From the NCBI GenBank assembly GCA_022821935.1, contig JAJECR010000192.1:1-46753 (forward strand): DNA of 46,753 nucleotides, in the 5' to 3' direction. A program made the translations under genes and the position numbers. The DNA is from Candidatus Latescibacterota bacterium (GTDB taxonomy: Bacteria; JAAXHH01). The notes below the pieces were generated by a model, which worked only from the letters and a program-made list of their open reading frames with translations, had not been told where the DNA came from and ran no database searches. Below, in pieces: positions 1,336-33,367 of the stretch (its first letter is position 1; each line of letters begins with the position of its first letter).

Positions 1336-3939
1336 ATGACCACACCTCTCTACATGCTCGCCGACGACCTCGCCGGCGCTCACGACGTGGCGGTCCCCTT
1401 CGTGAAACGGGACTTCGCCGTAGCCGTGCTGTCCGATCCCGACCGGCTGGATCGGTTCGATACGGCGGACCTGATCGTGCTGAACACGAACAGCCGTTCC
1501 TGCGGCGAGGCTGAAGCCGCCGATCGCGTGGGGGCGGCCTGCGACGCGATACGGGCCCGGTCGGGCGCGTTGATCTACAAAAAGATCGACTCGACGCTCA
1601 GGGGACACGTGGGCTTCGAAATCGATCTTGTCAGCGACAGGATGGACTTCGATCTGGCCGTATGCGCTCCGGCTTTTCCTGAAATGGGACGCACGACGGT
1701 GGGCGGATATCAACTGCTTCACGGCGTTCCGGTACGGAGCGTGGACATGGCGGGTCCCGACATTCCGCCGCAACATGCCTACATCCCGGATCTTCTCGAC
1801 AATGGATCCCAAAGAAAGACGGTCCACATCGATTTGAAAACCGTCCAGGGCGGTTCGTCAGTCATTCGAGACGCAGTCGACTTGCTCGGGTCTGGTACCG
1901 AGACCACGGTAGTCGTGGACATGGTCGATCCAATGGGATGGAATGGGTTGCTGGACGCGGTCCTTGTCGGCCGTGAAGCGTACGCGGTTGAAGACCGTGA
2001 AGCGTACGCAGAAAGGCGATTACCAGAACACTGGACGGCCCCGGTGCTGCTTTGCGGCTCCGGTGGACTGGCCGGCGCCCTGGCGGAAAAGTTGGCGCTC
2101 ACGCGGAAACCGCGCGCCTTATCATCCCGGAATTCTCGGGCTCCCGCATCCTCGTCGCCACAGAGGGAAAACCGCGTCCTCGTCTTCGCCTGCAGTCTGC
2201 ACGACACGACCACCCGACAGGTCGCGGAAGTCGCAGGTCGAGCGTCGACAGTCATTTGCTCCTTCGATCCCCTGTTGTTCATGGAAGAGCGGCACCGCGG
2301 CGACGAAACGGATCGACTGACAAAAAGCGTCACGGAGGTCATGGCGAATGACCGGAACGCGGTTGTTACACCGAAGCGGCCAGGCCAGTCGCAACTTCAG
2401 GCATGGTTGGGGCGGCTTTCGGAGGCGGCCGGCGGCCGCGACCCCGCGTCGGTGGTCATTGAGAACCTGGGTGTAGTCGCCCGCCGCCTGTTCGCGGCAA
2501 CGGAACCGCGCGGCATCGTACTCACGGGAGGGGAAACCGCGGGCAGCGTATTCCACGAACTGGATAGTGACGGTGCCTGGATTCTCGACGGAATCGAACC
2601 GGGCGTAGCCCTGGCCGCGGTTGCGGGCGGTCCCCAGGATGGTATGGGCGCGGTCGTCAAACCCGGATCCTTCGGCGACGGGCACACCCTGGCGAAGGCT
2701 ATGGACCGCCTGGACCGCCTGAACCGCCCGGACCGCCCGGACCGCCCGGACCGCCCAGACCGCCTTGATCGCCCGAGCTACTCGGACCGCCCGGACCACC
2801 TGTCTCCGCACGACGCTGCTGTGCCGTCAAGCGAAAGTCGGACTCATGGAAACCACAGAGTTAGCGATACGGAAGAGCGCCCGGTCATCGGCATCACGCT
2901 GGGCGATCCGAACGGCGTGGGTCCGGAGATCATCGCCAGGATCCTTTCCCAGGGATGGGTCTACGAGCTGTGCCGGCCGCTGGTCATCGGGCATGATGAG
3001 GTAATCCGCCGTGCCTTGCCATTGGTCCATGCCGGCTCTACCAAAGACGAAGACGGTGGAGGGCCCGCTCCGGTCCCTGGCATCCACCGCGTCGACCATC
3101 CCGCAGCCGGCTGGTATCGCCACGGTACGGTGGACGTCCTGAACGCCGCGGACGTGGAAATGGGCGTACTGAAGCCAGGACGGGAGCAGGCCGAAGCCGG
3201 CCGGCTTGCCGTGGAATCGGTCAAGCTGGCCGCCCGCCTGGCGATGGCGGGTGATATCGCCGCCGTGGTTACCGCGCCGATGAACAAGGCGGCCATGGGT
3301 CTTGCGGGGTATGCCTACGCCGGCCACACCGAATTGCTGGCCGAATTAACGGGAACGAAGCGTTTCCGGCTTGCGCTGGCCTTCGACGGAGTCCTGGTCT
3401 CCCACGCGACGACCCACGTATCCCTCCGGGACGCCATTGAACGATTGTCCGAGGAGGAAATCCTCGTGACGATCGACCTGGTCGGTCGCGCGCTGATCGG
3501 CATGGGTACGGCGGCACCCCGGATCGCCGTCTGCGGACTGAATCCCCACGCCGGCGAAGGCGGGCTCTTCGGGGACGAGGAGATCCGGATCATCGCGCCC
3601 GCCCTCGAAAAAGCGCGTGAAACAGGATGGCGGCTCGTCGGCCCACTCCCGCCGGACACCGTGTTCATGCGAGCCCGAAAGGGCGAGTTCGACGGGATCG
3701 TCGGCATGTACCACGACCAGGGCCACATCCCGGTCAAGGCCATCGCCTTCGACCGCACCGTGAACGTGACCCTCGGCCTGCCGATCATCCGCACCTCCGT
3801 GGATCACGGCACGGCCTTCGACATCGCGGGCAGGGGCATTGCCGACGCCGGCAACCTGGGCGAGGCGATTCGGATGGCCGTGCATCTGGTGGGCGACCGG
3901 TGGTCCGTCGGACCCAACCCTGGAGAAAACGCGACGTGA
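1336..3939 (+). CDS. Fusion protein: DUF1537 four-carbon acid-sugar kinase (DtnK/OtnK-like) at the N-terminus, PdxA-family NAD-dependent dehydrogenase (PdxA/PdxA2-like) at the C-terminus
   Basis: 867-aa ORF. N-terminal part has 'LADDLAGAHD' (DUF1537 ADDFTGA motif), 'LTGGETAGSV' and 'KPGSFGD'. C-terminal part has 'IGITLGDPNGVGPEI', 'APMNKAA', 'AGHTELLAE', 'YHDQGHIPVK' and 'SVDHGTAFDIAGRGIAD', which are PdxA hallmarks. The domains are joined by a (DRP)n linker. Confidence 0.85.
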   Translation: MTTPLYMLADDLAGAHDVAVPFVKRDFAVAVLSDPDRLDRFDTADLIVLNTNSRSCGEAEAADRVGAACDAIRARSGALIYKKIDSTLRGHVGFEIDLVSDRMDFDLAVCAPAFPEMGRTTVGGYQLLHGVPVRSVDMAGPDIPPQHAYIPDLLDNGSQRKTVHIDLKTVQGGSSVIRDAVDLLGSGTETTVVVDMVDPMGWNGLLDAVLVGREAYAVEDREAYAERRLPEHWTAPVLLCGSGGLAGALAEKLALTRKPRALSSRNSRAPASSSPQRENRVLVFACSLHDTTTRQVAEVAGRASTVICSFDPLLFMEERHRGDETDRLTKSVTEVMANDRNAVVTPKRPGQSQLQAWLGRLSEAAGGRDPASVVIENLGVVARRLFAATEPRGIVLTGGETAGSVFHELDSDGAWILDGIEPGVALAAVAGGPQDGMGAVVKPGSFGDGHTLAKAMDRLDRLNRPDRPDRPDRPDRLDRPSYSDRPDHLSPHDAAVPSSESRTHGNHRVSDTEERPVIGITLGDPNGVGPEIIARILSQGWVYELCRPLVIGHDEVIRRALPLVHAGSTKDEDGGGPAPVPGIHRVDHPAAGWYRHGTVDVLNAADVEMGVLKPGREQAEAGRLAVESVKLAARLAMAGDIAAVVTAPMNKAAMGLAGYAYAGHTELLAELTGTKRFRLALAFDGVLVSHATTHVSLRDAIERLSEEEILVTIDLVGRALIGMGTAAPRIAVCGLNPHAGEGGLFGDEEIRIIAPALEKARETGWRLVGPLPPDTVFMRARKGEFDGIVGMYHDQGHIPVKAIAFDRTVNVTLGLPIIRTSVDHGTAFDIAGRGIADAGNLGEAIRMAVHLVGDRWSVGPNPGENAT
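1971..2018. repeat. 24-bp tandem duplication inside the kinase domain (15-bp perfect core CCGTGAAGCGTACGC x2)
   Basis: Core at 1971-1985 and 1995-2009. Encodes REAYAVED/REAYAERR. Confidence 0.85.
2704..2802. repeat. In-frame 9-bp minisatellite (GACCGCCYG)n encoding the interdomain linker DRLDRLNRPDRPDRPDRPDRLDRP-SYS-DRPDHL
   Basis: Eight contiguous 9-bp units at 2704-2775. A 9-bp interruption follows, then two more units up to 2802. Confidence 0.9.
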
Positions 3940-9224: not shown

Positions 9225-9231
9225 CGAATAG

Positions 9232-9304
9232 TGGAGCTGAGCGGGATCGAACCGCTGACCTCATGAATGCCATTCATGCGCTCTCCCAGCTGAGCTACAG
9301 CCCC
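9232..9304 (-). tRNA. tRNA-Ala, anticodon GGC, CCA not encoded
   Basis: The reverse complement GGGGCTGTAGCTCAGCTGGGAGAGCGCATGAATGGCATTCATGAGGTCAGCGGTTCGATCCCGCTCAGCTCCA folds as a 7/4/5/5 cloverleaf. It has the G3:U70 alanine identity pair. Anticodon loop is A-T-GGC-A-T and the T-loop is TTCGATC. Confidence 0.92.
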
Positions 9305-16059: not shown

Positions 16060-16164
16060 TTCAACGGTTGATCGGAGAAGACCGGGGCAACGGCGTCTCT
16101 ACGTGTAGCAGCGTTTCATAGTATTCTGTGTGTAAGCAGCGCACAGAGCGTATAAGGAGGAAGG

Positions 16165-16869
16165 ATGACACGCCACAAACCCCGTTCGTACGGTATGAGT
16201 TACTCAACAACTTCCGTTCCGGTATCGGTTTCAGCCTTGTTCTTCATTTCGGCTATGGTCTTATTTTGTGTCTCGGTCACGCTCACCGGGTGTTCTGAAT
16301 CGTCGCCGACGGGGCCGGAAATGGAGGAGCAAGGCGAACACGGCGGCGAAGGCAGCGAAGGCGGCGGCGAGCATGGTGGAAGCGGCGAAGGTGGTGAGGG
16401 TGGCGGCGAAGGCGGCGAGGAATCCGGAACGGAGCTGACAAAAGACCAGGCCTATGATACTGTGCGTAAAGGCGCCCGGCTCGTGCTGCGTTACGATTCA
16501 ACCGCCGACGCGTTCGTCGGGACGGTGTCGAATACTACCGATTCGACCCTGACCCGGGTCAGAGTCGAAGTGCACCTGTCCAACGGAACGGAACTGGGTC
16601 CCACGACGCCGGTTGATCTCGCGCCGGGCGCGTCGGTGCCCGTCAACCTCTCCGCCATGGGAGAACAGTTCACCGGCTGGTCGCCCCACGCCGAGGTGGG
16701 TCCCTCCAGCGGGAGCGGAGGCGAACACGGCGGCGAAGGAGAGGGCAGTGGAAGCGGTGAAGGCAGCGAGGGCGGTGGCGGAGAACACGGTGGAAGTGGA
16801 GGTGAATCCGGTGAGGGCGGTGGAGGAGAACACGGTGGAAGTGGCGAATCCGGAAACGATGGGAGTTGA
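16165..16869 (+). CDS. Lipoprotein of unknown function, paralog 1: conserved ~90-aa core flanked by Gly/Glu/His (GGEHGG) repeat arms
   Basis: The context GGAGGAAGGATG contains the SD and start. The signal peptide ends in the lipobox VTLTGC. It has five EHGG units. The core is about 70% identical to the next gene, and the differences there are mainly synonymous in this frame. Confidence 0.75.
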   Translation: MTRHKPRSYGMSYSTTSVPVSVSALFFISAMVLFCVSVTLTGCSESSPTGPEMEEQGEHGGEGSEGGGEHGGSGEGGEGGGEGGEESGTELTKDQAYDTVRKGARLVLRYDSTADAFVGTVSNTTDSTLTRVRVEVHLSNGTELGPTTPVDLAPGASVPVNLSAMGEQFTGWSPHAEVGPSSGSGGEHGGEGEGSGSGEGSEGGGGEHGGSGGESGEGGGGEHGGSGESGNDGS

Positions 16870-16988
16870 CCGGGAAGGGCCAGGTCCAATGCGTTTCCAC
16901 TTGTGCGAATTACATCACCGCGTATGCTTAGTATATCACCGGGTAAGCACAGGATTGTATAGTTTTAGGTAACAATATGGGAGGAAGT

Positions 16989-17693
16989 ATGGTTGGCCAC
17001 AAAGCACGTTCATGCGGAACGAGTCCCCAAACTATGGGGTCCTCCTCGACACCGGTTTCGTCTGCGCTTAACTTTCTGGTCGTGCTCTTCGCCGGGGTTT
17101 CAGTTGCGCTGTTCGCGTGTTCGGGTGACGCAGGAGAAAACCGGTCCACGTCCGATGCGGAACGGATGGAAGCGGTAGAGGCCGGGCAGGACGGCGAAGC
17201 GACGGCGTCCGGCGCGGGGGAGAGTTCGTCCGGAAGGGAGTCGGGAGAGCACGGAGGAGAAGGTGTAGAAGGTGGAGAAGCCGGAAGTGACGAAGGCGAA
17301 GAATCCGGAGAATCCCTGACCCTGGACGAGACGTATGACTTCGTTCGTAAAGGCGCCCGGCTCGTCCTGCGTTACGACGCTGATTCCAATGCCTTCGTCG
17401 GATCGGTGGCGAACACCACCGATGTAATCCTGCGCAGGGTCCGGGTCGAAGTGCACCTGTCCAACGGCACGGAGTTGGGACCCACGACTCCGGTCGATCT
17501 CGCATCGGGTGAAATGGCCGACGTGAGCCTTTCCGCCACGGAAGAGCCGTTCACCGGATGGACACCCCATGCCGAGGTAGATACGGGGGACGGTGGCGGA
17601 GGCGAGCACGGTGAAGACGGCGAAGGCGGAGGCGAGCACGGTGGACGCGGAGAAGGTGGTGAGGGTGGAGGAGCACACGGCGGAAGCCGTTAA
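16989..17693 (+). CDS. Lipoprotein of unknown function, paralog 2 (same architecture as 16165-16869)
   Basis: The start was chosen at the ATG at 16989 (MVGHKARS aligns with MTRHKPRS of paralog 1), in the identical context GGAGGAAGTATG. Lipobox is VALFAC. It has four EHGG-like units. Confidence 0.75.
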   Translation: MVGHKARSCGTSPQTMGSSSTPVSSALNFLVVLFAGVSVALFACSGDAGENRSTSDAERMEAVEAGQDGEATASGAGESSSGRESGEHGGEGVEGGEAGSDEGEESGESLTLDETYDFVRKGARLVLRYDADSNAFVGSVANTTDVILRRVRVEVHLSNGTELGPTTPVDLASGEMADVSLSATEEPFTGWTPHAEVDTGDGGGGEHGEDGEGGGEHGGRGEGGEGGGAHGGSR

Positions 17694-17924
17694 GGGAGCG
17701 AAGGCGCTGAAACTGACGTAAGTGACGAAGAGGACGGAGAATACGCCGGAAGCGGCGAGGGTGGCGGGTACGTGTAAGGTGGAAGGTGGCGTAATGGGTG
17801 AGGGAGGCGTGCATGGCAGTGGAAAATAACGAAAAGTCCAGCTGTCGTTGCCGCGCTCGATAATTTTGCTTTGCGCATCAATACAGGAACCGTAAAGTAC
17901 CCACCCGAACAGGAGAAGAATAAA

Positions 17925-19019
17925 ATGCAACCAACAACGTCGTCCGCGGGCGTGAAGCAGGTCCCGCTCCTGACCACGGACCAGATCGCCCGGTTCAAAC
18001 GCGACGGCTTCCTCGTGCTGCCCGCCGTGCTCGATCCCGATCTGTGCCGTCAGGCCAGGGAAGCGCTGTGGTCCGCGGTGGGTACCCACCATCCCGGCAT
18101 GAAGCGCGGAGATCCCTCCACCTGGACGGGGTTCAACGATGAAGAAACCGGCCATCTGAACGCGAAGCGGCCCGAGATCGGCGGCGACCCCTATTTCTTC
18201 ACCGAAGGCCACCGCTTCTACGTCCGCAACGGTACCGAGCCGTTCATGCTCGATCTTGCCCCCAGGGCCCTGTGGCGGGTCGCCGAGCAATTGCTTGGCA
18301 AGGGCACGGTGGTCTGGCCCGCCGGCGCCGATGACTCCGGTATGACGACCGGGCCGTGCTTCATGGCCGATGACGTGGTGGGTGGGCTGGCCACCCACGG
18401 GATCAAAGAAACCGCGCAATGGCCGGAGAAGGGATCCTTCTCCACGGAAGAGGCACTGCGCCTGCCGAGGACGGGTCCGGTGTGGTCGACCGGGCAAGGG
18501 ACGCGCGGCCTGTACTGCACCCTGCCCGGCAGCCCTGCGCCCGGTTCCGAATACCGCGGCGCCCATACGGACGGCGCCTGCTACGGACGCGTCCGGTTTC
18601 AGGTAACCGCTTATGTCGACGACCTGCCTCCCGGTTCCGGAGGCTTTACGGTATGGCCGGGCAGCCACCGCCGGATCTGGCGCGCGCAGTGGCGGGACTT
18701 CCTCGAAGGCGAAAAGCACTCGGACGACCAACTGACCGGACGCAGGCCCGGCTACGACGATCCCGTCATCCAGCGCATCAAGCAAGATACCCGGCCCGTC
18801 GATTGCCACGGTCCCGCGGGCACGGCGGTCCTTTGGCACACCAAGATCCTGCACATCGCCGGGCAGAACACGTCGGCCGACATCATCCGCCAGGCGACCA
18901 TCTACGGATTCCTCAAAACGCCGGAGTCCCTTCCGGACCCGCTCGTAACGGACGAAACAAACATCGACATCTGGCGGGACTGGTCCGATGAAGTTCGGGC
19001 CATTGATGAGCGCCAATAG
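17925..19019 (+). CDS. Phytanoyl-CoA dioxygenase (PhyH)-family Fe(II)/2-oxoglutarate oxygenase
   Basis: N-terminal 'LTTDQIARFKRDGFLVLPAVL', an HxD triad in 'GAHTDG', 'FTVWPGSH', and a distal His in 'LWHTKILH'. The ATG at 17925 is preceded by GGAGAAG. Confidence 0.85.
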   Translation: MQPTTSSAGVKQVPLLTTDQIARFKRDGFLVLPAVLDPDLCRQAREALWSAVGTHHPGMKRGDPSTWTGFNDEETGHLNAKRPEIGGDPYFFTEGHRFYVRNGTEPFMLDLAPRALWRVAEQLLGKGTVVWPAGADDSGMTTGPCFMADDVVGGLATHGIKETAQWPEKGSFSTEEALRLPRTGPVWSTGQGTRGLYCTLPGSPAPGSEYRGAHTDGACYGRVRFQVTAYVDDLPPGSGGFTVWPGSHRRIWRAQWRDFLEGEKHSDDQLTGRRPGYDDPVIQRIKQDTRPVDCHGPAGTAVLWHTKILHIAGQNTSADIIRQATIYGFLKTPESLPDPLVTDETNIDIWRDWSDEVRAIDERQ

Positions 19020-19055
19020 ATCACCTTGAAAGACCGTAGAGATTAAGGAACGAGG

Positions 19056-19084
19056 TTGACCGTTTTTCCGGATCGTGTTATAAT
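19056..19084 (+). promoter_or_regulatory. Near-consensus sigma70 promoter for vapBC (TTGACC-17 nt-TATAAT)
   Basis: TTGACCgtttttccggatcgtgtTATAAT. The -10 element ends 42 nt upstream of the vapB ATG. Confidence 0.6.
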
Positions 19085-19126
19085 GGCGTTTAGTGATGTG
19101 TGAATAAATGTGTAGAGGATGACACA

Positions 19127-19327
19127 ATGGCAACGAACCTCTCGATTGATCCCGAATTGCTTGACAAAGCGCTTCAGGTCGGTGGCGAGAAAACCAAGAA
19201 AGCAACCGTCAACAGGGCTTTGAAGGAGTTTATCGCGCGTCGGGAGCAGGAGCGGCTACTCGTTCTGTTCGGCAAGATCGACTGGGATGAGGAGTACGAC
19301 TACAAGCGAGAACGGATGCGACGTTGA
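19127..19327 (+). CDS. vapB: Type II antitoxin, VapB family
   Basis: MATNLSIDPELLDKALQVGGEKTKKATVNRALKEFIARREQ...LFGKIDWDEEYDYKRER matches the VapB-antitoxin pattern. GAGGA lies 7 nt upstream. It overlaps the PIN gene by 4 nt. Confidence 0.85.
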   Translation: MATNLSIDPELLDKALQVGGEKTKKATVNRALKEFIARREQERLLVLFGKIDWDEEYDYKRERMRR

Positions 19328-19764
19328 CTCTGTTCGTGGATACAAGTGTCTGGTCGCTGGCGTTAAGGCGCAACCGGGATACTGAAGGGCCTGAAGTTAA
19401 TCGCCTGCGGGAAGCCCTTGGCAGTGGAGAGGCGATCTATACGACCGGGGTCGTCTTGCAGGAATTGCTTCAAGGCATCCGCAGCCCCACGCACAGAAAA
19501 AGGATCGTGGAACACTTCACCTCTCTTCCCATGCTCGTGCCCACGCGAAACGACCATATTGAAGCAGCAGACCTGTATAACGAATGCCGTCGCCGAGGTA
19601 TACAGGTCGGTACCATCGACGTGCTGCTCGCCCGGCTTTGCATTAGCCGCGATCTGGTCATGTTGTCGACCGACAGGGATTTTGGACATATCGCCGGGTG
19701 TACCTCGCTGCGACTGTGGGCGTCCTCCTCCGTGAACGACAAGTCCAAACATTTTCTTTCCTGA
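19324..19764 (+). CDS. vapC: Type II toxin VapC, PIN-domain ribonuclease
   Basis: 'LFVDTSVW' carries the first acidic PIN residue, and the ...D...TxD pattern appears near the C-terminus ('LSTDRDF'). TTG start overlaps the vapB stop (TTGA). Confidence 0.85.
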   Translation: MTLFVDTSVWSLALRRNRDTEGPEVNRLREALGSGEAIYTTGVVLQELLQGIRSPTHRKRIVEHFTSLPMLVPTRNDHIEAADLYNECRRRGIQVGTIDVLLARLCISRDLVMLSTDRDFGHIAGCTSLRLWASSSVNDKSKHFLS

Positions 19765-23177: not shown

Positions 23178-23206
23178 TTGACATATCGTCAGGATACAGA
23201 TATATT
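23178..23206 (+). promoter_or_regulatory. Near-consensus sigma70 promoter for higBA (TTGACA-17 nt-TATATT)
   Basis: TTGACAtatcgtcaggatacagaTATATT. The -10 element ends 14 nt before the higB start. Confidence 0.6.
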
Positions 23207-23220
23207 CACCCTTGGGGTGA

Positions 23221-23523
23221 TTGGTGGAATTAACTTTCAGAACAAACCGACTAAAACGCAATTACGAAGAATCAGCGAGAGCCACAAAGCAGTGGGGTTC
23301 TGATGTCGCGCGAAAGTACATCACTCGTGTAAATGAACTATATGCAGTCAGGGATTTTCAGGAAGCATGCCAAGTTAGATCGATGCGCTTGCATCCATTG
23401 AAAGGATCTGAGAGTGGGAAATGGTCCATTTATCTTACTGGAAGATGGCGCCTCATAATAACAAAGGGAGATACTGAGGACAGTGTATTCATCGAGGAGG
23501 TGAGCAACCATTATGATGACTAG
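23221..23523 (+). CDS. higB: HigB-type (RelE/ParE superfamily, 'plasmid maintenance system killer') toxin
   Basis: 'MRLHPLKGSESGKWSIYLTGRWRLIIT...VFIEEVSNHY' matches the HigB C-terminal pattern (LE.LKGDR.G.WSIRIN.QWRI.F..VEI.DYH). TTG or GTG start. It overlaps the next gene by 11 nt. G+C is clearly low. Confidence 0.8.
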   Translation: MVELTFRTNRLKRNYEESARATKQWGSDVARKYITRVNELYAVRDFQEACQVRSMRLHPLKGSESGKWSIYLTGRWRLIITKGDTEDSVFIEEVSNHYDD

Positions 23524-24661
23524 TGTATCGCGCATTTCTTCGGACCTGCCGATTCCGCCCGGTGAAGTATTGGCCGAGGAAATCGAGGCCAGAGGAATGA
23601 CACAACTAGAACTCGCGAGAAGGATCGGCAGGCCCGTACAAGTAATAAACGAAATCGTCAGAGCAAAGAAGGCAATCACTCCTGACACTGCTATTGAATT
23701 GGGAAACGTCTTCGGAATGTCTGCTCGGTTCTGGATGAATCTCGAGAGCGAATATCGCATGACATTAGCGAGAAATAGAAAAAGTAAAGAACTTGAAGCC
23801 AACGTTAAATGGCTGGATGAATATCCGGTAAAAACGATGATCAGGCGTGGCTGGATGGAAAAGGGATTGGAAAGGACCGAGAAACTGCAAGCACTGCTGT
23901 ACTTTCTTGAAGTCGCCGTCCCGGAACCACGGGCCTATCAGCAGGCCATCGGGTTTCAGGTGCCGGAGACTGTAAGTAATCGCGTTTCGCCTGGCGCACT
24001 TTCAGTATGGCTTCGGATGGGCGAACTCGCAGCTCGTTCTGTCGAGACTGCCGATTTCAATGCGGTTGTATTTCGCAACGTGCTCACCACGATCAGAAAA
24101 TACACTAAAGATCAGCCAGTGGAATTTCTACCCAAGATGTCTAAAGTCTGCGCTGAAGCAGGCGTCGCTTTCAACATGGTGAAGGAATTGCCAAAGAGCG
24201 GAGCGATTGCCGCGACCAGGTGGCTAAGTGAGCACAAAGCAACGATACAAATGAGTCTTAAGCAAGAGCGGGCTGACAGCTTCTGGTATACCTTCTATCG
24301 TGAAGCGAGCCACCTTCTCAAGCACCGAAAGCGACATAGGATCGTCATCGAGGGTCTTGCGAAGGAGTTGGAAAACTCGGACACCGATGTGGAAGCTGAA
24401 GAGTACACGAGGAATTTACTCATCGCCCAGGAGAACTGGCGAGAATTCTGTGGGGAAGGCCGTTTTGACTCCGGTCGGGTCAGCGAATTCGCAAGGTCGA
24501 TTGAAATAGCCCCATTCATTGTTGTTGGTAGATTGCAGAGCGAAGGACGAATTGGCTCTCACGAACTCAAGTCGCTGAAACGGCGATACAGTTGGAAGCA
24601 AAACCACGCGGCCACTCCCCTTTCGGCCAGTACGTTTTTCCAGAGGACGCCACCAGAATGA
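23513..24661 (+). CDS. higA: HigA-type HTH (XRE) antitoxin domain fused to a ~290-aa ImmA/IrrE (M78)-like domain with a degenerate zinc motif
   Basis: The N-terminus 'PPGEVLAEEIEARGMTQLELARRIGRPVQVINEIVRAKKAITPDTAIELGNVFGMSARFWMNLESEY' is the HigA signature. The C-terminal region contains 'FWYTFYREASHLLKH', which aligns to the M78 motif F.LAHELGHLLLH with the first His replaced by Arg. Confidence 0.8.
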   Translation: MMTSVSRISSDLPIPPGEVLAEEIEARGMTQLELARRIGRPVQVINEIVRAKKAITPDTAIELGNVFGMSARFWMNLESEYRMTLARNRKSKELEANVKWLDEYPVKTMIRRGWMEKGLERTEKLQALLYFLEVAVPEPRAYQQAIGFQVPETVSNRVSPGALSVWLRMGELAARSVETADFNAVVFRNVLTTIRKYTKDQPVEFLPKMSKVCAEAGVAFNMVKELPKSGAIAATRWLSEHKATIQMSLKQERADSFWYTFYREASHLLKHRKRHRIVIEGLAKELENSDTDVEAEEYTRNLLIAQENWREFCGEGRFDSGRVSEFARSIEIAPFIVVGRLQSEGRIGSHELKSLKRRYSWKQNHAATPLSASTFFQRTPPE

Positions 24662-26423: not shown

Positions 26424-29400
26424 TCAAAACGTATACCGCACACCCATCTGCACCTGCCAGCGGGAGGAGAGGTTGGTGGTCTGAAACACGTCCTCGCGCT
26501 CGACTTTCCCGTCTTCGTTGGCGTCCCGGACCCGGAGGTCCATGTCCGGCCTGCCCTGCTCGTCATACCCGTCGAAATTGAACAGGCCCACGGCGTCGAA
26601 TCGCACGAAGCGGCTCTGGCCCCAATCGCTGTTGATCAGGTTGGCCAGGTTCAGGACGTCCAGCGTCAGTTCGAAACGGTGGTTACGTATCGACGGCAGT
26701 TGCTGGATCAGGCGCAGGTCCAGCCGGTTCCGCCACGGCGACCGGGTCGCGTTGCGCCGGACGATGCCGCCCCGGGCCGCGTTCAGCGTGGGATCGGATC
26801 CGATGAAGACGTCGATAGCCTGCCACTCGTCGTCGGTGACCTCCGCGCTCACCTCGCTCCTGCCTGCCGGGACGTAGGCGAGGTCGTTGCCCCGGATCCC
26901 GTCGCCGTTCACGTCGTCGGCGTACATGTAGCTATACGGATCGCCCGCGCTGCCTTCGTAGAAAACGGATACGGTCGTGGCGAGTCCCCGTTCGAACTCG
27001 AACTTCCACGACCCGCTGGCCAGGATCCGGTGCCGGACCTCGAAATCGGACGTGGCGGTCGTCTCGCCGTTGGGGTCGTCGGTCTCGTTGTACTGCCAGT
27101 TGGAGATGGCGCGGCTGGACCTCCCGCTGTTGATGTCCTCGGCGTCCTGGAATACGTAGGCGACGCTGCCGAAGAGCCCGGGCAGAAAAGAAGTGTTCTC
27201 TCCCTTGCGCAGCCGCAGCGTCAGGTTGAACTGGCGGCCCTTGTCCGTGTTCTCCAGGAGGATGACGTTGGTGAAATCCCCGCTGACCTTCCTGCCGCCG
27301 TAGTCGGGCCGTCCGTCCGGGGTCGTACCCGTCGAATGGCCGTCGTTCCCGATGTTGAGGTTGCGGAAACGGACCTCGTCCAGGTTCCGGGCCAGCAGGA
27401 CTTCCACGGTGCCGACCAGGTCCAGGGGCAGCCGGCGGTCGAGGGCGAGGTTGGCACGGAAGACCCGGGGCAGCCTGAAATCCGGATCGATGACGTTCAC
27501 TTCCGTGGTCTGGGGCGTGGTGAGACTGGCACCCATTGGAAGCGGTTGCGAGAAGGGGTCCGCAACGAACGCCGGGACGTCCTGGTCCCGGAAGGTCGCA
27601 AGGTCGATGCGCGCGAAGTCCACCCCGGTGTTGCTGTAGGCGTTGGAGAGCCAGACGGCCGGAGGCAGCCCCGCGAAGACGCCGGCGCCGCCGCGTACCT
27701 GCGTCGATCGATCTCCTCCGGCGTCGAGATTGAAACCGAAGCGGGGAGACCAGAGGATTTGTCCGCCCGGAGTCCGGTCCGTCCGGTGGCCGGCGAACTG
27801 GCGGGCGAAACGGTCGTTGGCCAGGGGCTTGTCCGGCAGGACCGGCACGTCGGCTCGCAATCCGAAGTTCAGGCTGAGCCGCGGACTGATCCGCCAATTG
27901 TCCTGGGCGTAGAACCCCATCTGGGCGTAATCCCACGCCGCGCGGGGCTGTTCGACGCCGGGTACTCTGGAGAGACTCAGGAGGTAGCGGGCCGGCGTGC
28001 CTTGTTCAAAATCCTCGATGCTGTCGAACTCATAGGCGCCGTAGTAGTCCTGGATGAACAGGTTGTCGAAGGAGATGAACTCGTTGTGCGTGCCGATCGT
28101 AATGGTGTGGTCCGCCTTGAAAAGGTGGAGATCATTGGTGAATTCGAAGGTGTCCTGGTCCAGGGTGTTGGCCTGGGAAAACCGCTCCACGCCGAGACGG
28201 ACCTCTCCAAGGAACGCGCCGCCCGGCTCCTCGAGGTCTATACTGACCTGGGGGAAGGAAGCGGAAAGCGGCGACCGGCGGTCGCGTACGCGGCTGTAGG
28301 ATAACCGCGCTTCATTGGCGAGGCTGGCGGAGAAGGTGCTGTTGAGCTGCACGACCGAAGACTGGGTGACGTTGTCGCGTTTGAACTGGTTGCTGGTAAG
28401 GGTGAAGAGGGTGCGGCCGCGGCCCAGCCCGTCGTCCCGGTCTCCGGTTACGTAGTTATGGCGCAGTGTGAGCCTGTGCCCGGGCGACAGGTTGACGTCC
28501 AGCCGCCCGAAGAACTTCTCGTTCCGCGTATCCTGCGAGAATGGGTCGAATCCCCCGGCGTCGTAGCCGTACTTTTCGCGGGCGATGTCCACGATACGCT
28601 GCAGGTCCGCTGATCCCGCCCCGAAACGGATGGGCAGCCCCGAATCCGCCGGTCCCGCGCTAGAAGGACTCGAACGCCTCCGCAGTTCTCCGTTGATGAA
28701 GAAGAAGGCCCGGTTCCTGGCCACCGGACCGCCGAGTCTGAATCCGAGCTGGTAGTCGGTGAAATCCCCGAATTCGTCTCCGTCCAGGTCGCCCACCAGG
28801 GATTCGTTGCGGCCGAACCAGTACAGGGAACCCAGGTACCGGTTCGTTCCGCTGCGGGTCACCGCGTTGATGAGCCCGCCGGCGAAACCCCCGGAACGGA
28901 CGTCAAATGGCGCGACCTGCACCTGGAACTCCTCGATGGCGTCCAGGCTGATCGGCTGGGCGTTCACCTGTCCCGTGGGCAGGCCCTCGCCCGTGAGGCC
29001 GAAGGCGTCGTTCAGAACAGCGCCGTCCACCTGGAAGTTGTTCAGGCGGTTGTTCTTGCCCGCGATGCTCTGACCGCCCGCCTTCGCCGCCGCTTCGGGC
29101 GCCAGCCGCGTGTAGTCCTGTATACTCCGCGCGATAGAGGGCAGCCGGGCGATCTCGGTCGACGAAACGTGGGTCTCGGTACCGGTGTTCGACGCATTGA
29201 GCACCTCGTCCCTGTGGGCCGTGACAGTGATTTCCCCGGCCTCAATGACGTCCCTGCGCAGCCGGAATTCGGTACGCAGGTGTTGTCCCATGGTGAGCGA
29301 AACGCCCTGCCGGACGGCGGTGCGGTAGCCGATGTAGCTCACCCTGATCTCGTAGGGCCCGCCGGTCCTGAGTCCTGCGATGTTGTACCTTCCGTCATCA

Positions 29401-29585
29401 CGGGAGAATACGCCGGAGGAGACCCCCGTGGGTCCGTGCAGGGCGATCACGGTGGCGTTCGGGAGCGGGCGCCCGGTATCGTCCAGGACCTGTCCGCTGA
29501 GCGTCGCCGTGGTCACGCCCTGGGCGTGGACCAGGGAGGATAGAAAAAGGACGAAGGCCGGAACGGATAGGCGAAGTGTTCGCAT
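26424..29585 (-). CDS. TonB-dependent outer-membrane receptor with N-terminal carboxypeptidase-regulatory-like domain
   Basis: 1053 aa. Signal peptide is MRTLRLSVPAFVLFLSSLVHAQG. 'TLSGQVLDDTGRPLPNATV...GRYNIAGLRTGGPYEIRVSYIGY' is the CarboxypepD_reg-like domain. A plug region follows, and the C-terminus ends in the beta-barrel signature ...GVRYTF. Confidence 0.9.
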   Translation of the reverse strand: MRTLRLSVPAFVLFLSSLVHAQGVTTATLSGQVLDDTGRPLPNATVIALHGPTGVSSGVFSRDDGRYNIAGLRTGGPYEIRVSYIGYRTAVRQGVSLTMGQHLRTEFRLRRDVIEAGEITVTAHRDEVLNASNTGTETHVSSTEIARLPSIARSIQDYTRLAPEAAAKAGGQSIAGKNNRLNNFQVDGAVLNDAFGLTGEGLPTGQVNAQPISLDAIEEFQVQVAPFDVRSGGFAGGLINAVTRSGTNRYLGSLYWFGRNESLVGDLDGDEFGDFTDYQLGFRLGGPVARNRAFFFINGELRRRSSPSSAGPADSGLPIRFGAGSADLQRIVDIAREKYGYDAGGFDPFSQDTRNEKFFGRLDVNLSPGHRLTLRHNYVTGDRDDGLGRGRTLFTLTSNQFKRDNVTQSSVVQLNSTFSASLANEARLSYSRVRDRRSPLSASFPQVSIDLEEPGGAFLGEVRLGVERFSQANTLDQDTFEFTNDLHLFKADHTITIGTHNEFISFDNLFIQDYYGAYEFDSIEDFEQGTPARYLLSLSRVPGVEQPRAAWDYAQMGFYAQDNWRISPRLSLNFGLRADVPVLPDKPLANDRFARQFAGHRTDRTPGGQILWSPRFGFNLDAGGDRSTQVRGGAGVFAGLPPAVWLSNAYSNTGVDFARIDLATFRDQDVPAFVADPFSQPLPMGASLTTPQTTEVNVIDPDFRLPRVFRANLALDRRLPLDLVGTVEVLLARNLDEVRFRNLNIGNDGHSTGTTPDGRPDYGGRKVSGDFTNVILLENTDKGRQFNLTLRLRKGENTSFLPGLFGSVAYVFQDAEDINSGRSSRAISNWQYNETDDPNGETTATSDFEVRHRILASGSWKFEFERGLATTVSVFYEGSAGDPYSYMYADDVNGDGIRGNDLAYVPAGRSEVSAEVTDDEWQAIDVFIGSDPTLNAARGGIVRRNATRSPWRNRLDLRLIQQLPSIRNHRFELTLDVLNLANLINSDWGQSRFVRFDAVGLFNFDGYDEQGRPDMDLRVRDANEDGKVEREDVFQTTNLSSRWQVQMGVRYTF

Positions 29586-29834: not shown

Positions 29835-30845
29835 ATGGCGCTGATGGAAATCGAACCCGGTATCAAGGTCGCGGGGCAGATGTCCCCCGAACCGACACGA
29901 GAGGACCTGGAGTTCGCCCAACAACTGGGCATTGAGTACGTCTGTCTCTGGACGGACGGCGAACATGCCAACTACGACTATTTCATGAGCCGCCGGGAAA
30001 TCTACGAGGAAGCCGGTATCAAGATCTACGGTTTCGGGAACAGCGACGTGCATAACCAGGACGCGATCGTGCTCAATCTGCCGAACCGGGATGCGAAGGT
30101 GGAGCAGTACAAGCGATACATACGCGACCTCGGCAGGGCGGGCATTCCCTATACGACTTACGCCCACATGGGGAACGGGATCTGGAGCACGGAGCGGGAG
30201 ACCACCCGCGGCGGCGCGCCGGCCCGGGGATTCGACCTCGCCAGTGCAGAGGAAGGTCACTGGGGCGGGCGGCTGTTCAGGATGCCACTGACCCATGGGC
30301 GGGCGTACAGCAAGGACGAGATCTGGGACAATTTCGCCCATTTCATCGGGGAAGTCTCGCCCGTCGCCGAGGAAGCGGGCGTCCGGATCGGCATTCATCC
30401 CGACGATCCGCCCCAGCCGGAACTCGGCGGCATTCCGCGTTGCATTTTCAGCAGTTTCGAAGGATACTACCGCGCCATGGAAATCGCCGACAGTCCGAAC
30501 GTGGGGCTCTGCTTCTGTATCGGCTGCTGGCTCGAAGGCGGATCTCTGATGGGCAAGGGCGTGGAGGAATCGCTGCGTCACTTCGGCAAGCAGGGCAAGG
30601 TCTTCAAGGTCCACTACCGGAACGTGGACCAGCCCCTGCCCCATTTCGTGGAGACCTTCATCGATAACGGTTACTTCGACATGTACCAGGCCGCGCGGGT
30701 GCTGGAGGAAACCGGCTTCTATGGGGTCATGATCCCGGATCACATCCCCGAGATGGCGGGAGACGGCCGGATCGGCTACGCCTACTCGATCGCTTACATG
30801 AAGGCGCACGTGGACCGGGCGCGGGCGGAGTGCGCAGCCGCGTAA
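29835..30845 (+). CDS. Mannonate dehydratase (UxuA)-family / xylose-isomerase-like TIM-barrel enzyme
   Basis: AAGGAG lies 6 nt upstream. 'IHPDDPP', 'GIPRCIFSS', 'GLCFCIGCW', 'FKVHYRNV' and 'MIPDHIPEM' follow the UxuA-family pattern as I recall it. Confidence 0.7.
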   Translation: MALMEIEPGIKVAGQMSPEPTREDLEFAQQLGIEYVCLWTDGEHANYDYFMSRREIYEEAGIKIYGFGNSDVHNQDAIVLNLPNRDAKVEQYKRYIRDLGRAGIPYTTYAHMGNGIWSTERETTRGGAPARGFDLASAEEGHWGGRLFRMPLTHGRAYSKDEIWDNFAHFIGEVSPVAEEAGVRIGIHPDDPPQPELGGIPRCIFSSFEGYYRAMEIADSPNVGLCFCIGCWLEGGSLMGKGVEESLRHFGKQGKVFKVHYRNVDQPLPHFVETFIDNGYFDMYQAARVLEETGFYGVMIPDHIPEMAGDGRIGYAYSIAYMKAHVDRARAECAAA

Positions 30846-30883
30846 GACCGTTCCCCGCCCAGCCGCGGAAGGACCGGCGCGTC

Positions 30884-31768
30884 ATGAACGAACTGGACGA
30901 TTTCCTCACCCATCTGCTCATCGAGCGGGGGCTGTCACCGAACAGCTACGAGGCGTACCGGCGCGACCTGACGTCCTACCGTGGCCACCTGGACAGGCGG
31001 GGTGTTTCTTCCTTTTCCGACGCGACCCGGCAGGACGTCCAGGGATTCATCGCTTCCCTGCGCCGCCGCGGGCTCGCCCCTTCCAGCATCGCGCGGCACG
31101 TATCGGCTGTGCGGATCTTCCACCGTTTCCTCATCGGCGAAGGACTGGCCACGGCGGATCCGACCGAACACGTCAGTGTACCCAAGCAGCCGCGCCGCCT
31201 GCCGGTCGTCCTGAGCCGCCAGGAGATCACGGCGCTGATGGAACTGCCGGATCATACGACTTCGCTGGGTCTGCGCGACCGGGCGATCCTCGAATTCATG
31301 TATGCCACCGGCCTGCGCGCATCCGAACTCCTGGACTTCCGGCGTCCCGATCTGCTCTTCGATTCGGGTCTGGCGCGCATATTCGGGAAGGGCGGTAAGG
31401 AGCGCCTCGTACCGGTGGGCCGGCAGGCAATCAACGTGATCAGGAACTACCTGCACAAGGTGCGGCCGGTCCTCGCCTCGCCGGACAGCGGGGAGATTCT
31501 CTTCCTGAACGCCCGGGGTCGCAGGCTGTCCCGCATGGGACTGTGGAAGATCCTGGACACCTACGTGGAACTGGCCGGCATCGAAAAGAAGGTCAGTCCC
31601 CACACGATGCGCCACTCCTTCGCCACCCACCTCCTGGAAGGCGGCGCCGACCTCCGGGCCGTCCAGGAAATGCTGGGGCACGTGGACATCGCCACGACGC
31701 AGATCTACACCCACGTGGACCGCGAATACCTCAGGGACATGTATACCCGTTACCATCCGCGGGGGTGA
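30884..31768 (+). CDS. xerD: Tyrosine recombinase XerD (XerC/XerD family)
   Basis: 'LSPNSYEAYRRDLTSY', 'LRDRAILEFMYATGLRASEL', 'GKGGKERLVPVG' and 'HTMRHSFATHLLEGGADLRAVQEMLGHVDIATTQIYTHV...YHPRG' carry the R-H-R-Y catalytic residues. The internal ATG at 30884 is used. Confidence 0.85.
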   Translation: MNELDDFLTHLLIERGLSPNSYEAYRRDLTSYRGHLDRRGVSSFSDATRQDVQGFIASLRRRGLAPSSIARHVSAVRIFHRFLIGEGLATADPTEHVSVPKQPRRLPVVLSRQEITALMELPDHTTSLGLRDRAILEFMYATGLRASELLDFRRPDLLFDSGLARIFGKGGKERLVPVGRQAINVIRNYLHKVRPVLASPDSGEILFLNARGRRLSRMGLWKILDTYVELAGIEKKVSPHTMRHSFATHLLEGGADLRAVQEMLGHVDIATTQIYTHVDREYLRDMYTRYHPRG

Positions 31769-33367
31769 TCAGGAAGATGCGCTTCCGCGGAAACGTGAGG
31801 TAATGCTGCCCGCCAGGGCCGCCGCGACGACGGCCAGCACGCAGCAGAACAGGGCGAACACGTCCCCATATCGGGTGTAGAACGTCGGTCCATTCCGGTT
31901 GGGATGTACGTTCGCGACGGTGGTCGTGGCGACCATCATCGGCGTAGTGCCGTAGACGGCGCCGGTGGAGGAGATGAACCCGGAAATGCCGGTATTCGCC
32001 GCGCGGATGATCGGGGTGCCGTTTTCCACGGCGCGCAGCACCGCCATGGAGAAGTGCTGGGCGGGCGCGGAAGTCGTCCCGAACCAGGCGTCATTGGTCA
32101 TGACCACCAGCACGTTCGCGCCGTCCAGGGGAAACCGCCGGACCAGGTCCGGGAAGATGGATTCGTAGCAGATGACCGTGCCGATGTGCATGTCGTAGCC
32201 GGTGAGCGGCATCACGGTCAGTTCGTCCCCGGGCGTGAGGTCGCCGATCGCGCCGGTCAGCCCGGACAGAAAGGAGAACAGGCTTGGAAACGGCAGGTAC
32301 TCGCCGAAGGGCACCAGGTGCATCTTGCTGTAGGAACTCACGATGCCCCGTTCAGGCAGCAGCAGAAAGGCGCTGTTGTAGGTGCCGGTCTCGCCTGGCC
32401 GGTAGCCCAGCGCGCCGGTGAGCACCGGCACCCCCGCTTCTTCGGTCAACGCGTGAACCTGTTCGGTGTATTCCTCGAACACAGGACTCTCCAGCCAGAA
32501 CGTCATCGCCGTCTCGGGAAACACGATGAATTCGGGATCCTGCGGCAACACCGATCGGGTCAGGTCCCGGTATACGTCCACGGTCCGCTGGTAGAGCGAC
32601 TCGGACCACTTTTCGCCCTGTTCCTTGCTTCCCTGGACGACAGCCACCTTTACCGGCGGCGTCATACGCTCCAGGATACGGGCCTGCGAAATCGACCACC
32701 AGCCGTACCCCGTCGTGCTGATCAGGGCGAAACAGGACAGCGACATGGCGAATACGGGCGCCCGCCAAGAGGTCCTCTCGCGCAGTGCAATGAAGACCAT
32801 GGCCATGGTCGCGTTCAGCAGCATGACCAGGAAGCTGACACCGTACACGCCCGTATATTGCGCGATCTGTATGACGGGCAGGGCCTGGTGCTGGGAGTAA
32901 CCCAGCAGTTCCCACGGGAACCCCGTAAACAGGTAGGTCTGTATGTACTCGAGGGCAGTCCAGAGCGCGGCCGCGAACAAGGGGAACAGGGGTGATTTCC
33001 AGCTGGTCCGGGCCACGAGTATCCCGAACAAGAAGGCGTACAGGCCCACCACCGCAGCCACGCCCGCCATGCTGACCAGCCCCAGCGCGAGGTTCAGACC
33101 GCCGTAATTCATGACGGTCTCCATGATCCAGTATACCTTGGCGACGCCTGACACGAACGCGAAAGCCAGGGCGATCAAAACCACCCTTGTCAAGGAGCCG
33201 GAACGGCCCGCGTCGTGCAGCGCAATCATGACCGGCACAAAGGCGATCCAGGCCAGGGGCCACCAGTCGACCTTGGGTATGCTGAGGAAAATGAACAGGG
33301 CGGAACAGAGCGCGAGACCGTAACCGGCGATGGGTGATGAGGCGTGGAGGCGTTGCGACAGGGGCAT
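31769..33367 (-). CDS. lnt: Apolipoprotein N-acyltransferase
   Basis: A multi-TM N-terminal half is followed by a CN-hydrolase domain ('VKVAVVQGS', 'VFPETA', 'GTVICYESIFPDL' with the catalytic Cys). 532 aa. Confidence 0.9.
   Translation of the reverse strand: MPLSQRLHASSPIAGYGLALCSALFIFLSIPKVDWWPLAWIAFVPVMIALHDAGRSGSLTRVVLIALAFAFVSGVAKVYWIMETVMNYGGLNLALGLVSMAGVAAVVGLYAFLFGILVARTSWKSPLFPLFAAALWTALEYIQTYLFTGFPWELLGYSQHQALPVIQIAQYTGVYGVSFLVMLLNATMAMVFIALRERTSWRAPVFAMSLSCFALISTTGYGWWSISQARILERMTPPVKVAVVQGSKEQGEKWSESLYQRTVDVYRDLTRSVLPQDPEFIVFPETAMTFWLESPVFEEYTEQVHALTEEAGVPVLTGALGYRPGETGTYNSAFLLLPERGIVSSYSKMHLVPFGEYLPFPSLFSFLSGLTGAIGDLTPGDELTVMPLTGYDMHIGTVICYESIFPDLVRRFPLDGANVLVVMTNDAWFGTTSAPAQHFSMAVLRAVENGTPIIRAANTGISGFISSTGAVYGTTPMMVATTTVANVHPNRNGPTFYTRYGDVFALFCCVLAVVAAALAGSITSRFRGSASS

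Follow-up and report, generated by a model that had tools for sequence, protein, structure and literature searches.

The window, which here means the whole stretch of DNA that we analyzed, is the 46,753-nucleotide contig JAJECR010000192.1 of a Candidatus Latescibacterota bacterium (assembly GCA_022821935.1). It carries two adjacent genes on the plus strand, hereafter paralog 1 and paralog 2, that each encode a 234-amino-acid (aa) lipoprotein precursor with a signal peptide, a lipobox, an N-terminal arm, a conserved core, and a C-terminal arm (table 1). The open reading frames (ORFs) bear out this architecture, which the initial annotation had described for two same-strand proteins of ~235 aa, and both lipoboxes were confirmed. 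In paralog 1, a signal peptide (aa 1–42) and the lipobox LTG/C precede an N-terminal arm made of Gly, Glu, Ser, and His. Paralog 2 has a longer and less Gly-rich N-terminal arm with one EHGG, and EHGE, EHGG, and AHGG follow in its C-terminal arm. The motif count (five EHGG in paralog 1; two EHGG, one EHGE, and one AHGG in paralog 2) agrees exactly with the first description. Paralog 1 is a 100% match to a gene called on contig KELL22-1 scaffold_851. Both precursors display the positively charged N-terminus, the hydrophobic stretch, and the lipobox of lipoproteins, the substrates of SPase II (MTRHKPR...VSVTLTG/C and MVGHKAR...VSVALFA/C), and 60% of 263 homologs carry a lipobox recognized by a regular expression. 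An enzyme of lipoprotein maturation, apolipoprotein N-acyltransferase (Lnt; LNT_N plus CN_hydrolase), is encoded in the window at 31772–33367 on the minus strand; the maturation enzymes Lgt and LspA were not found there. As the window encodes Lnt and a TonB-dependent receptor, the host is diderm.

The two paralogs are 51% identical overall (BLASTP E = 2e-47). Over the 22 codons of the VRVEVHLSNGTELGPTTPVDLA stretch they differ at eight, every one of them synonymous, and these are the same eight differences that had been listed initially. In the core, which spans 95 codons, the two genes share 41 codons and show 25 synonymous and 29 nonsynonymous differences (nonsynonymous divergence dN 0.227, synonymous divergence dS 0.857). 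This codon pattern indicates that the coding frame is real, that the core is under purifying selection, and that the duplication is old, in agreement with the tight constraint and the non-recent duplication first proposed. The same tandem pair lies between the same neighbors in the related genome L082 (GCA_022825625.1). The regions upstream of paralogs 1 and 2 and of the L082 genes have in common only a ribosome-binding site and short patches. The ORF list would also allow paralog 2 to begin further upstream, with the ATG at 16977. Position 16989 is the better start because the GGAGG ahead of it mirrors, at the same distance, the AAGGAGG ahead of paralog 1. Scans around both genes detected no promoter-like sites with a sigma-70 model and no terminator-like sites on the plus strand. 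Past the stop of paralog 2, the arm-like continuation of the reading frame is possibly the remnant of a longer C-terminal arm cut by a recent nonsense change, or a chance G/A-rich tail; it is not present in the L082 ortholog of this gene. Long antisense ORFs of up to 701 aa lie opposite both genes and the downstream PhyH gene (16283–16900 and 17068–19205, minus strand, e.g., 17100–19205). We rejected them as genes: rich in Pro, Ser, and Arg, they merely mirror the G/A-rich coding strand, of which they are by-products. Such artefacts displaced the real genes in the ORF calls on several of the homolog loci.

Table 1. Positions of the tandem lipoprotein genes, of their parts, and of the repressor–transducer fusion loci in other genomes
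Feature	Position	Strand	Description or basis
Paralog 1	16165–16869	+	234-aa lipoprotein precursor; ORF and translation
Paralog 2	16989–17693	+	234-aa lipoprotein precursor; ORF and translation
Shine-Dalgarno-like AAGGAGG	16154–16160	+	4 nt before the paralog 1 start; kept in L082
Shine-Dalgarno-like GGAGG	16980–16984	+	4 nt before the paralog 2 start
Lipobox LTG/C, Cys43 of paralog 1	16291–16293	+	Sequence
Lipobox LFA/C, Cys44 of paralog 2	17118–17120	+	Sequence
N-terminal arm of paralog 1, aa 44–86	16294–16422	+	Contains two GEHGG units; the GEESG motif found throughout the family lies directly ahead of the core
Core domain of paralog 1, aa 87–181	16423–16707	+	Hidden Markov model (HMM) envelope; predicted seven-strand β-sandwich
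C-terminal arm of paralog 1, aa 182–234	16708–16866	+	Three GGEHGG units, encoded by imperfect tandem repeats of 21 nt
Core domain of paralog 2, aa 106–200	17304–17588	+	HMM envelope
Arm-like in-frame continuation GSEGAETDVSDEEDGEYAGSGEGGGYV past the TAA stop of paralog 2	17694–17777	+	27 codons to the second stop
Candidate tetrad of paralog 1	E135, H137 (16573–16575), H175 (16687–16689), E177	+	Alignment
Candidate tetrad of paralog 2	E154, H156, H194, E196	+	Alignment
BlaI/CopY-like repressor and BlaR1/M56-core fusion	L164 1–6611 (also L165); L168 8531–10620		

The core is predicted by AlphaFold2, from a 46-sequence alignment, to form a seven-strand β-sandwich (block predicted local distance difference test [pLDDT] values 94–98, about 97), in line with the small β-sandwich suggested at the outset. 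An HMM built from both window cores was used to count core copies in 121 sequences, namely the 120 listed matches, which include paralog 1, and paralog 2. One copy was found in 19 of them, two in 89, and three in 13. The single-domain tandem genes of the window, each apparently with its own ribosome-binding site, are the equivalent of the two- to three-domain fused chains found elsewhere. The model of a two-domain homolog contains two confident domains and linkers with pLDDT below 50, and looks like beads on a string. No confident interdomain packing is seen in this model (predicted template modeling score 0.44), and nothing therefore supports a fixed heterodimer of the window paralogs.

The invariant or near-invariant residues of the core, in the profile numbering used here for core positions (A2 numbering), are D10, G15, R17, F29, G31, N35, R45, E47, H49, L50, the E55-L-G-P58 motif, D63, G67, W84, H87, and E89. 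Four of them, E47/H49 and H87/E89, form an E-x-H / H-x-E tetrad. The E and H of each pair stand at i and i+2 on a predicted strand and so point to the same face within that strand. This tetrad is intact in 336 of 376 distinct domains (89%). H87 is missing in nine domains, six of which also lack H49, with R, K, or Y instead. It is present in the other 367, where H49 is missing 29 times, 28 of these being the N variant. The paired loss of the tetrad histidines is suggestive only, the association in these alignments being inflated by kinship among the sequences. Position 49, that of the first tetrad His, is occupied by N in a "B-type" variant of the core (CFVQIELNLKQG...W.IHPE.FDC), most copies of which also have a conserved Cys pair. 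This variant is usually joined with standard cores in one chain, as in P0004, P0106 (e.g., aa 194–297), P0113, P0115, and P0266.

The arms are predicted to be disordered, with block mean pLDDT values of 54–69 in the single-domain model, where only the modeled part of the paralog 1 N-terminal arm is covered, and below 50 in the two-domain model. Across the family, GEESG directly precedes nearly every core, and GGEHGxGGE begins within a few residues of its end. In 263 homologs, the arms average 64.5% G/E/S/D, with 29% Gly, 17.5% Glu, and 3.8% His. The His residues stand almost always beside Glu, and the E-H-G context holds 43% of them versus 5% expected from composition. The mature arms are without Met-based motifs. 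A collagen-like triple helix was considered for the arms and rejected for lack of G-X-Y periodicity.

Only one family model matches the core consistently, the NCBIfam model FxLYD_dom (NF038353). Against its curated cut-off of 23 bits, the full-length paralogs score 21.2 and 14.1 bits, and the paralog 1 core alone scores 23.9 bits, just over the threshold. The model matches 45 of the 46 family cores (E < 0.1; best E 4e-7). These figures make a borderline match and support the FxLYD-like pattern noticed initially. The alignment is limited to profile positions 6–56 of 71, short of the C-terminal region of the profile, and the window cores terminate in FTGW(S/T)PHAEV. A few members of the family are already named "FxLYD domain-containing protein" by NCBI. 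The first statement that no family could be recognized was thus slightly too strong, although the FxLYD_dom model carries no function. A literature search on the FxLYD domain found nothing, and one on the core family or its motif found nothing relevant. Pfam gave no match above threshold for the full paralogs or the 46 family cores. We set aside, as inconsistent and generic β-sandwich noise, the sub-threshold Pfam matches to DUF7507 (14 of 46 cores), TOBE (7 of 46), PCuAC, Big_1, and FixG_C (single cores), and as spurious the source labels "AbrB/MazE" and "ribosomal protein L19" carried by some members. Foldseek matched the fold only to generic immunoglobulin (Ig)-like sandwiches (ToxA, de novo Ig designs, SadB, DUF1425, and adaptin ears), with E ≥ 4e-3 and template modeling scores ≤ 0.46. 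An exhaustive profile search of 1.84 billion representatives of 50% identity clusters yielded 953 clusters at E ≤ 1e-3 and 746 at E ≤ 1e-10. On sequence grounds, the core family is compact and distinct.

A scan of one genome per species detected at least 168 loci, the best 80 of which were used for the counts of distribution and neighborhood given below. They are overwhelmingly from metagenome-assembled genomes (MAGs) of Poribacteria, Dehalococcoidia/SAR202, Caldilineaceae, Acidimicrobiia, Gemmatimonadota, Latescibacterota, Spirochaetia, Paracoccaceae, and Gammaproteobacteria, and the identity of their cores to those of the window is 58–74% across these phyla. Two cultured isolates are represented, Leptobacterium flavescens and Wukongibacter baidiensis, the latter a hydrothermal-vent isolate. 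The closest genome match of the window is a Candidatus Latescibacterota MAG; the HisB encoded in the window is 81% identical to a gene on the contig carrying locus L011. No homolog was found in the plasmid collection. The phyla concerned are characteristic of sponge microbiomes, and lateral gene transfer among sponge symbionts has been reported (PMC8163846); the link to sponges made here is through the phylum membership of the MAGs, not the isolation source of each.

ORF clustering of the 80 loci revealed one recurrent neighbor, a pair consisting of an OmpR/PhoB-type response regulator and a BaeS-like histidine kinase of ~469 aa. In about 20 loci, which belong to Chloroflexota, Acidimicrobiia, and Spirochaetia, this pair directly follows the homolog on its strand, giving the order lipoprotein, regulator, kinase, with no other effector gene in the cassette. 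The kinases are mutually orthologous (55–74% identity to the L012 kinase used as query). They score best on BaeS-type models, at 241.8 bits versus an equivalog cut-off of 500, and being so far below it were rejected as BaeS orthologs. Their periplasmic domains hold an acidic and His-bearing stretch, for example EGSEGGEHGSSDSLHH. Upstream of the lipoprotein genes, we identified the operator-like element GACAWATTTSWGCRACATTTC, composed of two ATTTC half-sites 11 bp apart. A conserved element of this kind, followed by a −10-like box (CTATCGT-type), is found in all 14 upstream regions read. Exact matches occur in 11 loci (L010, L012, L013, L015, L017, L038, L045, L052, L059, L070, and L078), once each, and always at the 5′ end of the lipoprotein ORF or a little ahead of it (e.g., L012 7689–7709). 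Judging from this arrangement, the lipoprotein, regulator, and kinase genes look like an autoregulated operon.

Different sensors accompany the family in other lineages. In Paracoccaceae (L079 4495–8750), a two-component system divergent from the homolog contains an unrelated EnvZ-like kinase with GDGEHGREDVHGHRESD, and a companion EF-hand protein has His-rich ends. In the clostridial Wukongibacter (L016 7821–13590), two homologs are followed by a 455-aa secreted hyper-acidic protein with EESHEEG repeats and then by a regulator–kinase pair, whose kinase loop is also acidic and His-bearing. In Leptobacterium (L069 5835–8282), a BlaI-like repressor and a BlaR1/M56-like protein, with the C-terminal tail ENHEEGHDNKK...EGEHREGEEHKEGERDEINHKD, precede two tandem homologs. 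Genes downstream at the Paracoccaceae loci and upstream in Leptobacterium (5-oxoprolinase, TRAP transporter, peptidase, and a LytTR system, assigned by eye) were judged unrelated.

P0255 and P0264 are fusions in which an arms–core–arms module continues the extracytoplasmic C-terminal end of a BlaR1/M56 transducer, and a BlaI/CopY-like repressor gene precedes each of them. This C-terminal position is that of the sensor (penicillin-binding) domain in BlaR1. CopY/TcrY is the second-best NCBIfam match of the L164 repressor (107.9 bits; cut-off 121.95). At this locus, the repressor–fusion pair is divergent from a resistance-nodulation-division (RND) operon. The best match of its pump, a 404-aa fragment, is to the CusA/CzcA family (TIGR00914, 270.8 bits). 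The adaptor has the His-rich C-terminus GGHFHADGTFHGDH, and the operon also encodes a 141-aa HEHEHHAHQHQHAHDH protein. Other fusions associate Cache domains with two cores (P0136) or the core with a weak match to a TbpB-like C-terminal barrel (P0256); the C-terminal extensions of P0245 and P0203 are similar but have no Pfam match. In P0249 and in the second L016 gene, the core follows an N-terminal region that we read by eye as a Cu_amine_oxidN1-like stalk. The core–arm module is portable, extracytoplasmic, and ligand-facing.

We consider it moderately likely that this is an extracytoplasmic metal-binding or metal-sensing module, as this is the most economical account of the sensor operons, the BlaR1-type fusions, and the tetrad; we infer metal binding from the tetrad, the EHG dyads, and the genomic context only. 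Each protein would be lipid-anchored outside the cytoplasmic membrane of the diderm host, where a rigid β-sandwich, with the E-x-H / H-x-E tetrad on two strands, would be tethered between flexible arms studded with Glu-His-Gly dyads. Tetrad and arms would bind a divalent transition-metal cation, through a His2/Glu2-type site on the sandwich and extra low-affinity capacity provided by the Glu-His arms. The protein could buffer metal in the envelope, bind the ligand as the partner of a membrane sensor, or do both. Dedicated sensors with the same ligand chemistry would serve it in other genomes, where the module is seen as the first gene of what looks like an autoregulated operon, after a BlaI/BlaR1-like pair, or fused to a BlaR1-like transducer. 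The cation would be Zn, Ni, Co, or Cu(II) rather than Cu(I) or Ag(I), because the candidate ligands are His and carboxylates, with no Cys or Met, and the Czc-like neighbor at L164 fits borderline divalent ions. The identity of the metal, buffering versus co-sensing, and surface versus periplasmic location are all matters that we infer. Extracytoplasmic metal capture, the hypothesis of the initial annotation, is thus retained on the grounds of the sensors with Glu/His segments, the L164 fusion beside a CusA/CzcA-family operon, and the tetrad. The argument it drew from neighboring "metal enzymes" (creatininase and PhyH) is abandoned: this synteny is confined to the close relatives L002, L003, L006, and L082, and the contexts elsewhere are unrelated.

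Several observations weigh against a metal-handling function. Neither single-sequence nor profile searches of the PDB sequences gave a match, and no characterized family fits the core. A classical Ig or fibronectin type III topology could put the two tetrad strands at opposite edges of one sheet. About half of the core residues are conserved, far beyond the needs of a metal site, and this breadth suggests a protein partner besides the metal. The link to metal efflux consists of the single L164 locus, most loci having no metal gene nearby. Among the window ORFs scanned and the called genes of the contig, there is no metal transporter or regulator, and the GACAWATTTSWGCRACATTTC operator of the sensor-linked copies is not in the window, even with up to three mismatches. 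The region upstream of paralog 2 loosely resembles the operator's right half, too faintly for any conclusion to be drawn from it. With no homolog of the regulator or kinase of the sensor cassettes found in the window either, the pair consists of orphan copies with no sensor nearby. Homologs without arm histidines, which had been named beforehand as contrary evidence, exist (10 of 263, 4%), and the C-terminal tail is reduced to five residues or fewer in 35 of 263 (13%); in the Longimicrobiales proteins at L008 and L077, which stop at HAEVG or HPEVG, the C-terminal arm is essentially gone. The arms could be mainly spacers. These homologs indicate that the arms are accessory and that the core is the conserved functional unit. 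Finally, a distribution mostly in sponge-microbiome lineages could mean that the cue is derived from the host and is not a metal.

Some of these points lend themselves to another reading, to our mind rather unlikely, in which the protein is a signaling accessory: the sandwich would dock on a Glu/His-rich extracytoplasmic loop of a kinase or BlaR1-like protease and modulate the sensor, and the cue need not be a metal. Lipoproteins of this kind are known, as LpqB, CseA, and NlpE modulate MtrB, CseC, and CpxA, respectively. A cassette reduced to lipoprotein, regulator, and kinase would suit such a role, as would the position of the core at the C-terminal extracytoplasmic end of BlaR1-like transducers, the similar Glu/His composition of sensor loops and lipoprotein arms, and the very high conservation of about half of the core, which fits a protein–protein interface. 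However, most members, the window pair included, have no sensor near them, the tandem amplification and the two or three domains per chain are better suited to capacity than to stoichiometric signaling, and no homology to any known accessory lipoprotein was found. If the docking were bridged by a metal, this reading would overlap the metal-binding one, and the two are partly compatible. We can also picture the module as the ligand-binding element of an undescribed, horizontally shared envelope sensing system of sponge-associated bacteria, in which the sandwich would recognize Glu/His-rich tails, its own arms and those of the kinases and BlaR1-like proteins, in a metal-dependent manner, and free lipoprotein copies, the window pair among them, would titrate the signal. 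It would then be a tunable "three-component" sensor of a metal or host cue across at least seven phyla, a proposal that we regard as speculative and unlikely.

An adhesive or masking function at the cell surface in the sponge niche is, we believe, no more probable than that proposal. The sandwich would bind a host molecule (matrix, lectin, or immune receptor) or mask the cell, with the arms as hydrated spacers. Horizontal spread among unrelated symbionts would account for the cross-phylum identity of the cores, the best genome matches are dominated by MAGs of sponge-microbiome phyla (PMC8163846), and the weakly matched TbpB-like barrel of some members is typical of surface lipoproteins. Yet members also occur in W. 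baidiensis and in MAGs of unestablished source, and Pfam scans revealed no similarity to known eukaryote-like repeat or adhesin families. The sensor/regulator cassette with its Glu/His loops and the adjoining metal efflux operon would be unexpected for an adhesin. A polyampholyte that buffers or reports envelope pH or ionic strength, responding to pH or to general cations (Ca2+/Mg2+), is very improbable. It would explain the composition of the arms, rich in Gly and Glu, with His beside Glu titrating near neutral pH, and the EF-hand Ca-binding and hyper-acidic companions; in PmrB, His and Glu residues of the periplasmic loop mediate acid-pH sensing. Against it, the invariance of the tetrad and the rigidity of the core that bears it suggest a site more than a bulk polyelectrolyte, and at L164 the neighboring system is an RND system for heavy metals.

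An envelope metal-binding lipoprotein or sensor module is of a known kind. The fold family, the arms, the operator–regulator–kinase cassette, and the BlaR1 fusions are undescribed as far as we could find. Small extracytoplasmic proteins encoded beside, or controlled by, a metal- or envelope-stress two-component system include ZraP (ZraSR), CpxP (CpxAR), Spy (BaeSR), and CopM (CopRS). They share with the present family the pairing with a two-component system, but are α-helical and unrelated to it in sequence. A two-component system that responds to metal belongs to the sil and pco loci as well. Like SilE and PcoE, the window proteins are secreted and have largely disordered, His-bearing repeats, with a proposed high-capacity buffering in the envelope. 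In contrast to SilE/PcoE, they have no Met or Cys ligands and possess a rigid conserved β-sandwich. SilE and CopL are functional precedents in the literature. SilE is a metal "sponge" of the periplasm and is disordered (PMC5008109); it lacks both a folded domain and a lipid anchor, and its ligands for Ag(I)/Cu(I) are His/Met. Pfam and NCBIfam searches with the paralogs gave no sequence homology to SilE/PcoE. CopL is a copper-resistance lipoprotein of Staphylococcus and Bacillus with tandem DUF1541 domains (PMC5947656). Similarly to the family described here, it is lipid-anchored and horizontally transferred, has tandem small domains and conserved His, and is proposed to be a surface metal sink or sensor. 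However, it uses His/Met, is cotranscribed with a P-type ATPase under CsoR, and lacks low-complexity arms. Its DUF1541 is not matched by the paralogs or by the 46 family cores in Pfam.

In the BlaR1/BlaI systems (MecR1/MecI, CopY-related), the likeness resides in P0255 and P0264, where the module occupies the C-terminal extracytoplasmic place and a BlaI/CopY-like repressor gene lies upstream. The fusions hold arms and sandwich instead of the penicillin-binding domain, and the window proteins have no M56 domain. The FxLYD domain is, like the core, a small β-rich extracytoplasmic domain, and its model is the only curated one that recognizes the core; unlike the family, it is without Glu/His arms, the E-x-H / H-x-E tetrad, or linkage to sensors. 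The arms had first been compared with the loops of ZnuA-type proteins. This likeness is compositional only: the paralogs have no solute-binding-protein domain (cluster A-I) and their fold is a 90-aa β-sandwich. A match of one core to AdcA was at chance level (E = 0.096). A lipoprotein accessory to a two-component system ("three-component system") would be expected to share an operon with the regulator and kinase; the window contains no such operon, and the cassette loci described above do.

If the metal-binding reading is correct, a family of 953 clusters with no Pfam entry and no solved structure would represent an extracytoplasmic metal-handling module with its own regulators and operator. 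It would be common, by lateral transfer, to phylogenetically distant bacteria of the sponge-microbiome type. Sponges concentrate trace metals, and a symbiont device that buffers or senses them would bear on the persistence of the consortium in its host. Through the BlaR1 fusions, that class of transducers would gain a new sensor domain. The system is small, with a 90-aa domain, a candidate site of four residues, and a defined operator–regulator–kinase cassette, and the outcome of use to genome annotation is a domain definition with context rules covering about 1,000 "hypothetical proteins."

The neighbors of the pair in the window are catabolic genes: aminotransferases, a creatininase, three PhyH-family genes, an enolase-superfamily gene, and an FAA hydrolase. 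Between PhyH-family genes, a VapB-like antitoxin (19100–19327) and a PIN-domain, VapC-like toxin (19324–19764) are encoded on the plus strand with a stop/start overlap, where the local GC content drops to ~0.54. The GC content dips sharply to 0.46 at 23200–23800 (flanks about 0.62–0.65), at the start of an HTH_3-domain gene (23513–24661); this dip may correspond to a foreign insert or a regulatory region. Further along the contig lie the TonB-dependent receptor (26424–29585, minus strand) and a XerC/D-type tyrosine recombinase (30830–31768, plus strand), and a tRNA-Ala(GGC) gene is located at 9231–9304 on the minus strand. DUF1537-type kinases and PdxA-like dehydrogenases are usually encoded by separate adjacent genes. 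In the window, an 867-aa ORF (1336–3939, plus strand) fuses a DUF1537-type four-carbon acid sugar kinase (SBD_N plus NBD_C) to a PdxA-like dehydrogenase.

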